64,000 bases of DNA from Patagioenas fasciata (taxonomy: Eukaryota), in contig NC_092556.1 in assembly GCF_037038585.1 (NCBI RefSeq), forward strand, positions 514,619 through 578,618, given 5' to 3'. How positions within the stretch are numbered: position 1 is the stretch's first letter; each line of letters opens with the position of its first letter. The notes beneath the pieces are model-generated. The model was not told the origin of the DNA. It made no database searches and saw nothing but the letters and a program-made list of their open reading frames with translations. A program made the translations under genes and the position numbers. This document shows positions 27,987 through 42,580 of the stretch, one piece after another.

Positions 27987-28066
27987 TCACCAGGGCGCCC
28001 CCTCCAGGGGCAGCGCGGGCACAGCGGGGGAGGGGCCGCCCGGGGGCGCCAGGGGGCAGGAACCGC
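27987..28066 (-). CDS. MAZ: MAZ (MYC-associated zinc finger protein) terminal coding exon (includes stop)
   Basis: Acceptor tcccctcccctcccccctccccccccag|GC with a very long polypyrimidine tract. Phase-1 exon encodes (G)GSCPLAPPGGPSPAVPALPLEGAPW*. Human MAZ is ...ELCNK|GTGEVCPMAAAA...SQPLPSQPW*, so the CPLA versus CPMA match and the terminal PW* are both conserved. Confidence 0.6.
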
Positions 28067-28799
28067 CTGGGGGGGAGGGGGAGGGGAGGGGAGGGGAGGG
28101 GGGGTCACCGGGGGGCTGGGGGTGCCCCATGGATCCACCCCATAGATCCACAGATCCACCCCATGGATCCGACCCATAGATCCAGCCCATAGACCTGACC
28201 CATGGGTCTGACCCACGGATCTGACCCATAGATCCACCCCATAGATCCACCCCATAGATCCGACCCATAGATCCAGAGATCCACCCCATGGATCCGACCC
28301 ATAGATCCAGAGATCCACCCCATAGATCCACCCCATAGATCCACCCCATGGATCCACCCCATGGATCCACCCCATGGATCCAGAGATCCACCCCATAGAG
28401 CCGACCCATAGATCCATAGATCCACCCCATAGATCCACCCCATAGATCCACCCCATAGATCTGACCCATAGATCCAGCCCATAGACCTGACCCATGGGTC
28501 TGACCCACGGATCTGACCCATAGATCCATAGATCCACCCCACAGATCCAACCCATAGACCCATAGATCCACCCCATAGACCCATAGACCTGACCCACAGA
28601 TCCAACCCATAGATCCATAGATCCACCCCATAGATCCACCCCATAGATCCATAGATCCACCCCATAGATCCACCCCATAGACCCACAGATCCACCCCATA
28701 GATCCATAGATCCACCCTATAGATCCAACCCATAGACCTGACCCATAGATCTGACCCATAGATCTGGCCCATGGATCTGACCCATGGATCTGTGGGGCT

Positions 28800-31700
28800 G
28801 CCCCATAGATCTGACCCATAGATCCCACCCCACATCCCCACCTCCCCACCCATTTCCCACCCCAAATCGCCCCCAAATCCCCCCCATTTCTGCCCCAATC
28901 GCCCCCATTTTCGCACCCCACACCCCCCACATTGCGCCCCACACCCTGCCCCATAGATCCTGCCCCATAGACCCCACTTCATCACCCATTTCCCACCCAT
29001 TTCCCACCCCAAATCGCCCCCAAATCCCCCACATTTCTCCCCCAATCGCCCCCATTTTCGCACCGTGTGCCCCCCACCCCCTGCCCCATAGATTGTGCCC
29101 CATAGATCCCCACCTTCCCACCCATTTCCCACCCCAAATCGCCCCCAAAACCACCCCAAAATGGCCCCAAATCCCCCCCATTTCTCCCCCAATCTCCCCC
29201 ATTTTCGCACCCCACACCCCCCACATTGCGCCCCACATCCTGCCCCATAGATCCCGCCCCACATCCCGCCCCATAGATCCCACTTCATCACCCATTTCCC
29301 ACCCATTTCCCACCCCAAAACGCCCCCAAATCCCCCCCATTTCTCCCCCAATCGCCCCCATTTTCGCACCCCACACCCTGCCCCACATCCCGCCCCATAG
29401 ATCCCCACCTTCTCACCCATTTCCCACCCCAAATCGCCCCCAAATCGCCCCCAAATCCCCCCCATTTCTCCCCCAATCGCCCCCATTTTCACACCGTGTG
29501 CCCCCCACCCCCTGCCCCATAGATTGTGCCCCATAGATCCCCACCTCCCCACCCATTTCCCACCCCAAATCGCACCCAAAACCACCCCAAAGTGGCCCCA
29601 AATCCCCCCCATTTCTCCCCTGATCTCCCCCATTTTCGCACCCCACACCCCCCACATTGCACCCCACACCCAGCCCCATAGATCCTGCCCCATAGATCCC
29701 CACCTTCCCACCCATTTCCCACCCCAAAACGCCCCCAAATCCCCCCCATTTGTCCCCCAATCGCCCCCATTTTCACTCCAACTGCCCCATAGATCCCACC
29801 CCATAGCTCCCGCCCCATAGCTCCTGTCTGTGTCGTCGATCTCCTGCCCATTGCCCACCCCAAATCGACCCAAATGGCCCCAAATCCCCCCCATTTCTCC
29901 CCCGATCGCCCCCATTTTCGCACCCCACACCCCCCACATTGCGCCCCACACCCTGCCCCACATCCCACCCCATATCCTGCCCCATAGATCCCACTTCATC
30001 ACCCATTTCCCACCCCAAATCGCCCCCAAATCCCCCCCATTTCTCCCCCAATTGCCCCCATTTTCGCACCCCACACCCCCCACATTGTGCCCCACACCCT
30101 GCCCCACACCCTGCCCCATAGATCCCCACCTTCCCACCCATTTCCCACCCATTTCCCACCCCAAAACGCCCCCAAATCCCCCCCATTTCTGCCCCAATCT
30201 CCCCCATTTTCACACCATGTATCCCCCACATTGCGCCCCACACCCTGCCCCATAGATCCTGCCCCATAGATCCCACTTCATCACTCATTTCCCACCCCAA
30301 ATCGCACCCAAAACCACCCCAAAACGCCCCCAAATCCCCCCCATTTCTCCCCTGATCTCCCCCATTTTCGCACCCCACACCCCCCACATTGCGCCCCACA
30401 CCCTGCCCCATAGATCCCGCCCCACATCCCCACCTCCCCACCCATTTCCCACCCCAAATCGCCCCCAAATCCCCCCCATTTCTCCCCCAATCTCCCCCAT
30501 TTTTGCACCCCACACCCCCCACATTGCGCCCCACACCCTGCCCCACATCCCACCCCACATCCCGCCCCATAGACCCCACTTCATCACCCATTTCCCGCCC
30601 ATTTCCCACCCCAAATCGCCCCCAAATCGCCCCCATTTCTCCCCCAATCTCCCCCATTTTCACACCATGTGCCCCCCACATTGCGCCCCACACCCTGCCC
30701 CACATCCCACCCCACATCCCGCCCCATAGATCCCACTTCATCACCCATTTCCCACCCCAAATCTCGGCCGTTTCTGCCCTGATCGCCCCCATTTTTGCAC
30801 CGTGTGCCCCCCACATTGCGCCCCACATCCTGCCCCACATTGTACCCCATAGATCCCGCCCCACATCCCCACCTCCCCACCCATTTCCCACCCATTTCCC
30901 ACCCCAAAACGCCCCCAAATCCCCCCATTTCTCCCCCGATCGCCCCCATTTTCACACCATGTGCCCCCCACATTGCGCCCCACATTGTGCCCCATAGATC
31001 CCCACCTTCCCACCCATTTCCCACCCATTTCCCACCCCAAATCACCCCCAAAACGCCCCCAAATCCCCCCCATTTCTCCCCCGATCTCCCCCATTTTCAC
31101 ACCCCACACCCCTCACATTGCGCCCCACACCCTGCCCCACATCCCACCCCACATCCCGCCCCACAGATCCCACTTCATCACCCATTTCCCACCCCAAATC
31201 GCACCCAAAACCACCCCAAAATGGCCCCAAATCCCCCCCATTTCTCCCCCAATCGCCCCCATTTTCGCACCCCACACCCTGCCCCACATCTCTGCCCCAT
31301 AGATCCCCACCTCCCCACCCATTTCCCACCCCAAATCGCACCCAAAACCACCCCAAAATGGCCCCAAATCCCCCCCATTTCTCCCCCGATCTCCCCCATT
31401 TTCACTCCAACTGCCCCATAGCTCCTGCCCCATAGCTCCTGTCTGTGACGTCAATTTCCCGCCCATTTCCCACCCCAAATTGACCCAAATCGCCCCCAAA
31501 TCCCCCCCATTTCTCCCCCGATCTCCCCCATTTTCGCACCCCACACCCCCCACATTGCGCCCCACACCCTGCCCCACATCTCTGCCCCATAGATCCCCAC
31601 CTCCCCACCTATTTCCCACCCATTTCCCACCCCAAATCACACCCAAAACCACCCCAAAATGGCCCCAAATCCCCCCCATTTCTCCCCCAATCTCCCCCAT

Positions 31701-32160
31701 TTTCGCACCGTGTGCCCCCCACATTGTGACCCACATTGTGCCCCATAGATCCCCACCTTCCCACCCATTTCCCACCCCAAATCGCCCCCAAATCCCCCCC
31801 ATTTCTCCCCCGATCTCCCCCATTTTCGCACCCCACACCCCCCACCCCCTGCCCCATAGATTGTGCCCCATAGATCCCCACCTTCCCACCCATTTCCCAC
31901 CCATTTCCCACCCCAAATCGCACCCAAAACGCCCCCAAATCCCCCCCATTTCTCCCCCAATCGCCCCCATTTTCACTCCAACTGCCCCATAGATCCTGCC
32001 CCATAGCTCCTGTCTGTGATGTCGATCTCCTGCCCATTTCCCACCCATTTCCCACCCATTTCCCACCCCAAATCGCCCCCAAATCCCCCCCATTTCTCCC
32101 CCGATCTCCCCCATTTTCGCACCGTGCGCCCCCCACATTGCGCCCCACACATCGCCCCAC
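28800..32160. repeat. Higher-order tandem repeat (~150-bp unit: cccatttcccaccccaaatcgcccccaaatcccccccatttctcccccaatcgcccccattttcgcaccccacaccccccacattgcgccccacaccctgccccatagatcc), ~20 copies, in the large MAZ intron
   Basis: Direct reading. It is preceded at 28110-28800 by a ccccatagatccacc microsatellite. Confidence 0.85.
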
Positions 32161-42000: not shown

Positions 42001-42190
42001 ACCCCCCCAGTCCCCCCATTACCCCCCAGTCCCCCCATTGCCCCCATTGTCCCCACTCCCCCCACCCCCCCGTATCCCCCATTCCCCCCCATCCCCTCCA
42101 TTCCCCCCCACCCCCCCCACTCCCCCCCACTCCCCCCATTCCCCCCCACCCCTCCCACTCCCCCCACCCCCCCCATTGTCCCCCCTCCCC
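39100..42190. repeat. Tandem minisatellites (gggggctatggggacactgg family from 39100 to ~39850, then ccccagtgtccccattgtccccacccccattgtcccagtgtccccagtcc family) upstream of MAZ exon 2
   Basis: Direct reading. The long Pro-rich and Gly-rich ORFs here are repeat read-throughs. Confidence 0.85.
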
Positions 42191-42349
42191 CCCCCGTTGT
42201 CCCGAGCCCCGGGGGTGACCTGGAAGATGAATCCACCCCAGGTCGGGTCCATCGCGATCGCTATGGCGGCGCCGGGAGGGGGGGGGGGGGGGGGGGGGGG
42301 GCTGAAGGGGGGGGGGGGGGGTCCCTCACAGATCGGGGGGGGGGGTGCC

Positions 42350-42580
42350 CCTCTCTGATTGGTCCCCGCCCCCGCGGCGCTCGCTGATTGGCTGCGGCGG
42401 GGCCGCGCGCACAAAATGGCGTCTACGGGGAAAGGAGGGGGGGGAGGCGCTGCTGATTGGTGGCTGCACCACGTGATGGCGGCGCGGACACGCCCACCGA
42501 AGGGGGGAGGGAAAGGCGCATGCGCCGGGGTTGCTATGGAAACCACCCCCCCCCTCCTTTAAATCCAATGGGAGCGCGGA
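42350..42580. promoter_or_regulatory. Candidate promoter (probably MAZ, minus strand): three inverted CCAAT boxes, an E-box and an NRF1 palindrome
   Basis: ATTGG occurs at 42358-42362, 42387-42391 and 42456-42460, which is CCAAT on the minus strand. CACGTG is at 42470-42475. GCGCATGCGC, the NRF1 consensus, is at 42516-42525. CCAAT is at 42566-42570. This is unique GC-rich sequence between two satellite blocks. Confidence 0.45.

Follow-up and report, generated by a model that had tools for sequence, protein, structure and literature searches.

An intact bird MAZ gene with tandem-repeat-filled introns and a probable SAF-3-type first exon in Patagioenas fasciata

The window, the whole stretch of 64,000 nucleotides that was analysed, contains a bird version of the gene for MAZ (Myc-associated zinc finger protein) that is ordinary and intact and lies on the minus strand between PRODH-like and INO80E genes. 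The predicted product has 343 amino acids and six C2H2 zinc fingers and is encoded by five coding exons. The features of the locus, listed in the direction of MAZ transcription, are as follows.

47372-47741, 61819-61980 and 63434-63568, minus strand: PRODH-like exons
42260..42640, minus strand: CpG-island TATA-less promoter region and probable 5'UTR (sequence read, motif map)
42220..42252, minus strand: predicted first coding exon CDS, ATGGACCCGACCTGGGGTGGATTCATCTTCCAG (alignment A1, protein motif, vertebrate distribution)
39097..42219, minus strand: intron 1, 3123 nt, 97.9% tandem repeat
38408..39096, minus strand: exon 2, 689 nt (TBLASTN and sequence read)
35442..38407, minus strand: intron 2, 2966 nt, 98.8% tandem repeat
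35378..35441, minus strand: exon 3, 64 nt, (R)PDHLNSHVRQVHSTERPFKCE (TBLASTN and sequence read)
32350..35377, minus strand: intron 3, 3028 nt, 99.6% tandem repeat
32184..32349, minus strand: exon 4, 166 nt, TCEAAFATKDRLRAHAVRHEEKVPCHVCGKLLSAAYVGDHVKGHAAPHHCELCSK(G), zinc fingers 5-6 (TBLASTN and sequence read)
28067..32183, minus strand: intron 4, 4117 nt, 98.8% tandem repeat
27987..28066, minus strand: last coding exon, (G)GSCPLAPPGGPSPAVPALPLEGAPW, stop codon TGA at 27989-27987 (sequence read)
27810..27986, minus strand: putative short 3'UTR, within the non-repeat island 27783-28071
20241-20348 and 22407-22481, plus strand: INO80E exons

The repeat shares were obtained with Tandem Repeats Finder. 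The earlier note on this DNA, made from the letters alone, had recognised four MAZ exons, and both the gene and these exons were borne out by TBLASTN with MAZ proteins and by the splice sites read directly. The six zinc fingers are found in conserved order and spacing, and the TBLASTN matches with crane, ostrich and human MAZ are collinear, the human query not being a database record. The predicted protein matches the Pfam families zf-C2H2, zf-C2H2_4 and zf-H2C2_2 (E=5e-20 to 4e-19) and has 811 homologues, of which the best named ones are all MAZ. A collection of 15 billion proteins contains no exact match to the 343-aa protein, to a version starting at an internal methionine or to the genomic ORF, and among the loci compared with the window even the closest reaches only about 79-95% per exon. 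The gene evolves under purifying selection, with dN/dS of 0.10-0.15 relative to the MAZ of crane, ostrich and alligator (185 codons).

The gene order PRODH-like, MAZ, INO80E coincides with that of crane in a TBLASTX comparison, which consisted mostly of repeat noise when unfiltered and revealed the synteny with a filter of at least 50 bits. The neighbourhood expected of a 16p11.2-type block is therefore found in the window.

Exon 2, in which a Pro-rich region (…LPVDLLPVL…TVDAAALK…) precedes zinc fingers 1-3 and a part of finger 4, is matched by crane MAZ with E=1e-99 and by the human query with 2e-89. Its acceptor reads tttcccccccacag/GCC (a slash marks the exon border) and its donor AG/gtgggt. 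The exon 3 peptide RPDHLNSHVRQVHSTERPFKCE shares 100% identity with crane and ostrich MAZ and is also present in macaque, vole and jaguarundi proteins. The last exon, with the acceptor ccctcccccccag/GCG, ends in ...LPLEGAPW and is homologous to the tail of ostrich isoform X3, …PCPLAPAGPPVSAVTVLPLEGAP…. All four MAZ introns have canonical GT-AG borders, and the intron positions …FSR/PDH…, …KCE/TCE… and …NK/G… are conserved, with identical breakpoints in the crane locus. The poly(A) site is a predicted one; the 1 kb 3' of the stop codon contains a single AATAAA, at 27836-27831.

Eight codons 5' of its acceptor, the reading frame of exon 2 runs into an in-frame TAA, and since no ATG intervenes, the coding sequence must begin in an exon further upstream. 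The earlier note had not found this exon and supposed either that the N-terminus had diverged strongly or that the exon was concealed in repeat-like sequence; it mentioned a weak mini-ORF at ~42203-42235. Neither supposition agrees with the vertebrate-wide motif found at 42252. The mini-ORF was the right candidate with the wrong coordinates: sequence comparison identifies the missing initiator exon as the mini-ORF at 42252-42220, an SAF-3-type start. This predicted exon comprises 33 nt, or 11 codons, from the ATG at 42252 in the Kozak context gcgATGg to the CAG at 42220; it includes ATGGACCCGACCTGGGGTGG, ends in phase 0 and is followed by the donor CAG/GTCACC, with the GT at 42219-42218.

The mini-ORF is taken as the first coding exon because it encodes an N-terminus like that with which MAZ begins in other vertebrates. 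The sequence M-D/E-x(2-3)-W-x-x-F-I/L-F-Q/P opens MAZ in sharks, teleosts, frogs, turtles, tuatara and alligator, as well as in ostrich, crane and a marsupial, and MD(P)xxWSSFIFQ is the start across vertebrates and that of human SAF-3. In the six-frame translation of the 64 kb, the motif M[DE]x(2-3)WxxF[IL]F[QP] occurs once, at 42252 on the minus strand with a GT next to it, and it did not occur in any of 300 composition-preserving shuffles. Alignment A1 sets the window beside crane, two passerines, ostrich, alligator and turtle and shows no variation among them in ATGGACCC, TGG and TTyATCTTCCAGGT. In both crane isoforms FIFQ is joined straight to APPPPP…LPVDLLPVL, to which the window's exon with its start at 39096 is homologous, and the junction FIFQ/APPPP is in phase 0 in crane and in the window alike. 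The exon 2 boundary had been placed correctly at 39096.

The crane (Grus americana) gene, XP_054664701/2, resembles that of the window in the layout of its exons and in its neighbours. An MDPxxW..FIFQ mini-exon is followed by a large Pro-rich/zinc-finger exon, a 64-nt exon, an exon of the 166-nt type and a terminal exon …EG…W, with PRODH-like upstream and INO80E downstream. The protein identity is about 67-75% over the aligned part. The differences concern intron 1 (about 220 nt in crane and 3123 nt in the window), intron 3 (about 80 nt and 3028 nt) and an alternative zinc-finger exon (FTTAAYLRVH…), which crane retains.

The promoter region upstream of the mini-exon has a GC content of 0.71-0.73 and a CpG o/e of 0.69-0.76. 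The motif map of the minus strand includes the following elements.

42569-42565, minus strand: ATTGG
42525-42516, minus strand: NRF1-type GCGCATGCGC
42475-42470, minus strand: E-box CACGTG
42460, 42391 and 42362, minus strand: three CCAATCAG boxes
from 42420, minus strand: YY1-like GCCATTTTGTGCGCGCG
42372-42364, minus strand: GC box
42340-42275, minus strand: long C tract
42270-42263, minus strand: GCCGCCAT

These motifs and the composition agree with the promoter-like island that had been noticed at 42350-42580. The crane promoter has the same motif order and an identical 17-nt GCCATTTTGTGCGCGCG block, which was the only informative match in a blastn-short search of the promoter against other loci, the remainder being poly-C/poly-G noise. 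GCCATTTTGTG was found also in alligator and turtle, and upstream of exon 1 in ostrich and passerines there are several CCAATCAGCGCC boxes and a tract rich in C. It is most likely that transcription starts within the CpG-island promoter at about 42260-42520, where predicted CCAAT boxes of the NF-Y type occur together with NRF1, E-box and YY1-like sites. The AUG at 42252, the first one, would then open the 11-codon exon, which would be spliced over 3.1 kb of 9-mer satellite onto 39096.

It could be supposed that the mini-ORF resembles a MAZ start only by chance and that the real first exon lies upstream of 42640 or, as in the second supposition of the earlier note, is hidden in the intron 1 repeats. 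The exon is only 33 nt long and, relative to other birds, contains a 3-nt deletion and the change SS>GG; besides the deletion, 3 of 12 residues differ. The donor GTCACC looks weak: orthologous donors carry A or G at position +3, whereas the window carries C, which is uncommon and found in about 3% of vertebrate donors. However, the window contains the motif a single time and the shuffles not at all, and the exon, correctly oriented and in the correct phase, is situated 110-273 nt 3' of promoter motifs that crane also possesses. Moreover, intron 1 is almost entirely a 9-mer array with non-repeat sequences of 51, 7 and 9 nt only, and no MFPVFPC exon or 29-aa exon was matched in the window. A chance match thus seems very improbable, and the GTCACC donor is presumably the one used.

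The comparison with human explains the difference of the starts. The human SAF-1 start (MFPVFPC...), which had served the earlier note as comparator, arises from a downstream alternative promoter, and the primers for human SAF-3 encode MDPSNWSS and the junction IFQ/GH (PMC6340948). The human SAF-3 initiator exon is of the same type as that of the window, ATG GAT CCC AGC AAC TGG AGC AGC … ATC TTC CAG/, and a GC-rich TATA-less promoter is located upstream of it, according to Ray et al., cited in PMC6340948. Unlike the window exon, it joins GHAQNPLQVG…, the 29-aa segment. Among the 149 proteins retrieved, MFPVFPC was present in mammalian sequences only, which made it the wrong comparator, and the second human promoter giving SAF-1 has no counterpart in the window. 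TBLASTN searches with the SAF-1-type exon, MFPVFPCTLLAPPFPVLGLDSRGVGGLMNSFPPPQG contiguous with (S/G)HAQNPLQVG…SPFQ, at E up to 50 produced only low-complexity noise, and no match within 39097-42640 lay on the correct strand and had an ATG; the human MAZ N-terminus gave only such noise in the window as well.

The amniote 29-aa exon has no match in the window and no space in intron 1, and the segment is likewise missing from the further neognath loci that were compared (crane, passerines and quail). The alternative zinc-finger exon FTTAAYLRVH…, known from the crane, ostrich, quail and chicken models, gave only low-complexity noise with TBLASTN in the window. These two ancestral MAZ exons are lost in this lineage. 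As to the mini-exon in other birds, the NCBI models of two passerines lack exon 1, although it is present as an MDPANWSSFIFQ exon 1.2-3.0 kb upstream of the starts annotated for them. No exon-1 match was found in the quail locus, 20% of which is N, so that this result says nothing about galliforms. A literature search found no report of MAZ among avian 'missing genes'.

Another explanation is that the main product starts at an internal methionine (MKMPTMVPL…, ATG 38727), from transcripts arising in or near intron 1, and that exon 1 is vestigial. Such a product would be devoid of the N-terminal region and zinc finger 1. Several MAZ database models from other species do start at MKMPTMVPLSLLSV (P0051, P0054, P0057, P0062, P0071), and the exon 1 donor is suboptimal. 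However, these models look like partial predictions, and the conservation in the window of finger 1, LPVDLLPVL and TVDAAALK upstream of the internal methionine argues for their translation. Exon 1 and its promoter are conserved too, while intron 1 has a CpG o/e of 0.05 and no promoter-like island. An internal start as the main one is hence highly unlikely.

The introns consist of several types of arrays. In intron 1, a 9-bp family (CCCAGTCCC and related units, with higher periods of 82 and 99 bp) extends over 39867-42192 and, inverted, over 39148-39859, with a pivot at 39860-39866; the arms 39142-39853 and 39980-40682 are inverted relative to each other with 75.8% identity over 740 nt. Intron 2 is composed of 157 copies of GACCAGTAT (93% matches) at 35478-36891 and 311 copies of CCAAC (24-bp higher period) at 36892-38406, and its sense strand includes 1473 nt without AG upstream of the true acceptor. 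Intron 3 comprises a 146/292-bp array at 33876-35346 (87-91% matches) and a 147/450-bp array at 32381-33886, and intron 4 a 145/292-bp array at 28847-32186 and a 13-bp CCCCATAGATCCA array at 28125-28764. The intron 3 segment 32360-33815 recurs as its reverse complement at 28857-30265, within intron 4 (81.9% over 1491 nt). The earlier estimates of ~3.0, ~3.0 and ~4.1 kb for satellite-filled introns 2-4 are close to the measured 2966, 3028 and 4117 nt with 98.8-99.6% repeat coverage. The description of the satellites as 'higher-order' was partly right, since for several arrays a multiple of the base period gives a higher score (e.g., 450 over 147 bp, 292 over 146, 99/82 over 9), while intron 2 is built of simple 9-mer and 5-mer arrays.

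Tandem repeats make up 89.8% of the window, with GC of 0.45-0.72, which is compatible with a location on a dot microchromosome. The non-repeat islands coincide with the exons and the promoter. The tandem-repeat share of the MAZ span is 77% in crane and 62% in ostrich, as against 10% in alligator and 17% in turtle, and the crane and ostrich units are unrelated to those of the window. The introns of human MAZ are short and are not known to be satellite-filled.

Repeat-filled introns of avian dot chromosomes have already been published as 'sequence stuttering' (Genome Biol Evol 2026, PMC12954441). The window shares with that account introns made almost entirely of imperfect tandem repeats that were amplified locally, with unit lengths from tens of bases up to hundreds, and blocks confined to single introns with the exons intact; it differs in that one family, inverted, is common to introns 3 and 4. 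Exon stuttering, i.e., adjacent exon copies in introns, was not detected at the threshold of that study, at least 42.1 bits; only distant low-complexity matches from the Pro-rich part of exon 2 were seen. Exon stuttering is a sub-type and is not required for intronic stuttering. It seems that such stuttering, by local amplification of tandem repeats, has swollen all four introns to 3-4 kb, with the exons, splice sites and promoter persisting as small unique islands.

That the copy is decaying or poorly functional, or partly an assembly artefact, with splicing disrupted by satellite invasion and misassembled arrays, might be suggested by the repeat share of the window, by a dN in the window lineage exceeding that of crane, ostrich or alligator MAZ, and by the loss of the two exons, but it is the least credible explanation and can hardly be maintained against an ORF intact over five exons with canonical splice sites and low dN/dS, the same repeat-filled build in crane and ostrich MAZ, which are annotated as multi-isoform genes, the absence of the 29-aa exon from the other neognath loci too, and the finding that strong acceptor-like motifs (Y6NYAG) are confined to the genuine acceptors of introns 1, 2 and 4.

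The locus is thus very probably an intact, constrained bird MAZ orthologue with five coding exons, including the SAF-3-type start at 42252, and with introns swollen by stuttering. It is conceivable, though unlikely, that the satellite arrays are non-neutral, being shaped by the processing of MAZ pre-mRNA and feeding back on it. Since exon 4 has 166 nt, its skipping shifts the reading frame, and the arms flanking it in introns 3 and 4 are opposite in orientation and therefore complementary in the transcript. This architecture may promote back-splicing (circular RNA) or exon skipping, and the 740-nt inverted pair of intron 1 could fold and bring the splice sites together. The arrays are depleted of AG and contain almost no strong splice-site decoys, which suggests selection for splice-neutral repeats.

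The MAZ gene call is correct, resolved and of low novelty, and its main value is in annotation: a complete, homology-supported MAZ gene model is available for this bird, and gene finders should seek an 11-12-codon SAF-3-type first exon and not the human SAF-1 start. The MAZ locus is a further clear case of a conserved housekeeping-type regulator that is intact while every one of its introns is replaced by species-specific tandem arrays.

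As was found by TBLASTN searches with MAZ proteins (a human sequence to begin with, followed by the crane and ostrich database proteins), the minus strand of the window contains four collinear MAZ blocks. Direct reading of the DNA showed that all MAZ introns are of the GT-AG type and consistent in phase. The gene identity and the four exons called in the earlier note were thus confirmed, and its intron sizes agree with the measured distances of 2966, 3028 and 4117 nt between these exons. The five coding exons, including the candidate for the first one, are as follows.

42252..42220, minus strand: first coding exon candidate, ATGGACCCGACCTGGGGTGGATTCATCTTCCAG/GTCACC
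39096..38408, minus strand: exon 2, acceptor tttcccccccacag/GCC, donor AG/gtgggt
35441..35378, minus strand: exon 3, 64 nt, peptide RPDHLNSHVRQVHSTERPFKCE
32349..32184, minus strand: exon 4, 166 nt, GT-AG splice sites read
28066..27987, minus strand: last exon, ending in LPLEGAPW and TGA

The exon 3 peptide is 100% identical to those of crane and ostrich and is also found in placental proteins. An in-frame TAA lies eight codons 5' of position 39096 with no ATG in between, and the reading frame must therefore open in another exon farther upstream. The earlier note reported the initiator exon as not found, having placed a weak mini-exon candidate at ~42203-42235; the exon itself stands, its coordinates being slightly off (actual 42252..42220), and homology favours this very candidate as the start. 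It had looked unconvincing because the start of the human isoform SAF-1, MFPVFPC, was taken as the expectation. A homologue search using exons 2-4 yielded 811 proteins, and among the N-termini compared MFPVFPC was present in mammalian sequences only. The start MDP(S/G/A)NWSSFIFQ is shared by turtles, tuatara, alligator, ostrich, crane and a marsupial, with MDANW(S/T)SFIFQ in frogs, MDAAWSNFLFQ in teleosts and MEAAWSSFIFP in sharks. In human, MFPVFPC begins SAF-1, and MDPSNWSS begins SAF-3, an isoform whose transcription starts farther upstream (PMC6340948).

When all six frames of the 64 kb window are translated, the motif M[DE]x(2-3)WxxF[IL]F[QP] has exactly one match, immediately followed by GT, and it has none in 300 local-composition shuffles. 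The window was compared with the MAZ loci of quail, crane, ostrich, two passerines, a turtle and alligator. In the exon 1 DNA alignment of the window with crane, ostrich, both passerines, turtle and alligator, ATGGACCC, TGG and TTyATCTTCCAGGT are invariant in 7/7 sequences. In both crane isoforms, FIFQ is joined directly to the homologue of AAAAPPPPPDPSPLPVDLLPVL, which in the window begins at 39096, and the exon 1/exon 2 junction is in phase 0 on both sides. Compared with other birds, exon 1 of the window has a 3-nt deletion, its length of 11 codons being that of the frog and fish exons, and GG in place of SS; its donor has C at +3, where other birds have A or G. Very probably 42252..42220 is the real first coding exon of MAZ, as resolved by homology, with splicing predicted at the GTCACC donor.

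Both passerines possess an intact MDPANWSSFIFQ/GTGGGG exon, at 6969-7004 of the Zonotrichia leucophrys locus (L006) and 8777-8812 of the Cinclus cinclus locus (L007), located 3.0 kb and 1.2 kb, respectively, upstream of the annotated NCBI start (MTS). This position indicates that the public passerine MAZ models probably miss the true first coding exon.

The promoter, left unresolved in the earlier note, can be resolved by homology as well, with the exact start site still putative. A CpG island (GC 0.71-0.73, CpG o/e 0.69-0.76) occupies the 390 nt 5' of the ATG; intron 1, in contrast, has a CpG o/e of 0.05. The motif order on the minus strand is GCGCATGCGC (NRF1-type), TCACGTGGT (E-box), CCAATCAG, GCCATTTTGTGCGCGCG (YY1-like), CCAATCAG, GC box, CCAATCAG, a long C tract, GCCGCCAT and ATG. 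The crane promoter has the same order and an identical 17-nt GCCATTTTGTGCGCGCG; GCCATTTTGTG, the E-box and CCAAT boxes recur in alligator and turtle, and in ostrich and passerines exon 1 is preceded by a C-rich tract and multiple CCAATCAGCGCC boxes. The ATG at 42252 would be the first AUG if the putative transcription start lies downstream of 42519. Directly upstream of the island, units of 105-124 bp are repeated in tandem over 42636-43342 (CpG o/e 0.74), each carrying several GGGGCGTGGCTTCC blocks (GT/KLF-Sp-like plus ETS-like core) and CCAAT/ATTGG; this array may belong to the regulatory region or be one more satellite.

The predicted spliced ORF encodes 343 aa with six C2H2 fingers, and the sole AATAAA in the first 1 kb 3' of the stop codon lies 153 nt from it. 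Over 185 zinc-finger-region codons (exons 2-4; GC3 0.95), dN/dS is 0.10 in the comparisons with crane and with alligator and 0.15 in that with ostrich; the dN of the window lineage against these three (0.048-0.068) is 2-10 times that among them. Synteny is as in crane, with INO80E exons downstream and PRODH-like exons upstream of MAZ, all in small unique islands.

47372-47741, 61819-61980 and 63434-63568, minus strand: PRODH-like exons
20241-20348 and 22407-22481, plus strand: INO80E exons

Many kb of tandem repeats separate the exons of these neighbours, ~14 kb lying between two PRODH-like exons.

A 29-aa exon, (S/G)H(A/T)QNPLQVG…SPFQ, was found in the ostrich, alligator and turtle loci, but not in the window, crane, passerine or quail (a gappy locus), and intron 1 of the window has no unique sequence able to contain it. 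The alternative C-terminal zinc-finger exon (FTTAAYLRVH…), which proteins or models of crane, ostrich, quail and chicken contain, was undetected in the window. Two MAZ exons of other sauropsids thus appear to be missing here.

The window is GC-rich, with a tandem repeat share of 89.8%, and the non-repeat islands are the exons and the promoter. Coverage by Tandem Repeats Finder is 97.9%, 98.8%, 99.6% and 98.8% for introns 1 to 4.

39097-42219, minus strand: intron 1, 9-mer family with 82/99-bp higher periods
35442-38407, minus strand: intron 2, GACCAGTAT x157 and CCAAC x311
32350-35377, minus strand: intron 3, 146/292-bp and 147/450-bp arrays
28067-32183, minus strand: intron 4, 145/292-bp array and 13-mer array

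CpG is nearly absent from introns 1 and 2 (o/e 0.05 and 0.09; intron 1 GC 66%) and retained in introns 3 and 4 (28067-35377; o/e 0.67 and 0.51). The ~146-bp satellite occurs in opposite orientations, 32360-33815 of intron 3 being the reverse complement of 28857-30265 of intron 4 (81.9% over 1491 nt), so the 166-nt exon 4 lies between long inverted arms, which would be complementary in the pre-mRNA. The 9-mer array of intron 1 also switches strand (39142-39853 against 39980-40682, pivot 39860-39866, short spacer), and this inverted repeat of 740 nt with 75.8% identity is a potential hairpin or cruciform. On the sense strand AG is depleted 2-3 fold in introns 1, 2 and 4 (observed versus expected 112 vs 272, 61 vs 162 and 128 vs 378), with a 1473-nt AG-free zone 5' of the intron 2 acceptor. 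The strong acceptor-like Y6NYAG is restricted to the true acceptors of introns 1, 2 and 4, and the sense strand of these three introns is rich in G-quadruplex motifs. Introns 1-3 have 0 donor-like AGGTR sites, whereas intron 4 has 14.

The crane and ostrich genes are likewise repeat-filled (77% and 62% of gene span), with units unrelated to those of the window, whereas those of alligator and turtle are low in repeats (10% and 17%). 'Sequence stuttering' is known for chicken dot-chromosome genes (PMC12954441), and the MAZ introns of the window match it; its exon-copy sub-type was not seen at this MAZ. The gene model is supported by homology, and its transcription and its splicing at the GTCACC donor are predictions. 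The analysis bears out the MAZ observation and the identity of the gene. This orthologue of a well-known gene is new and apparently unannotated, and its intron architecture is already described for birds, with known biology throughout and no departure from it.
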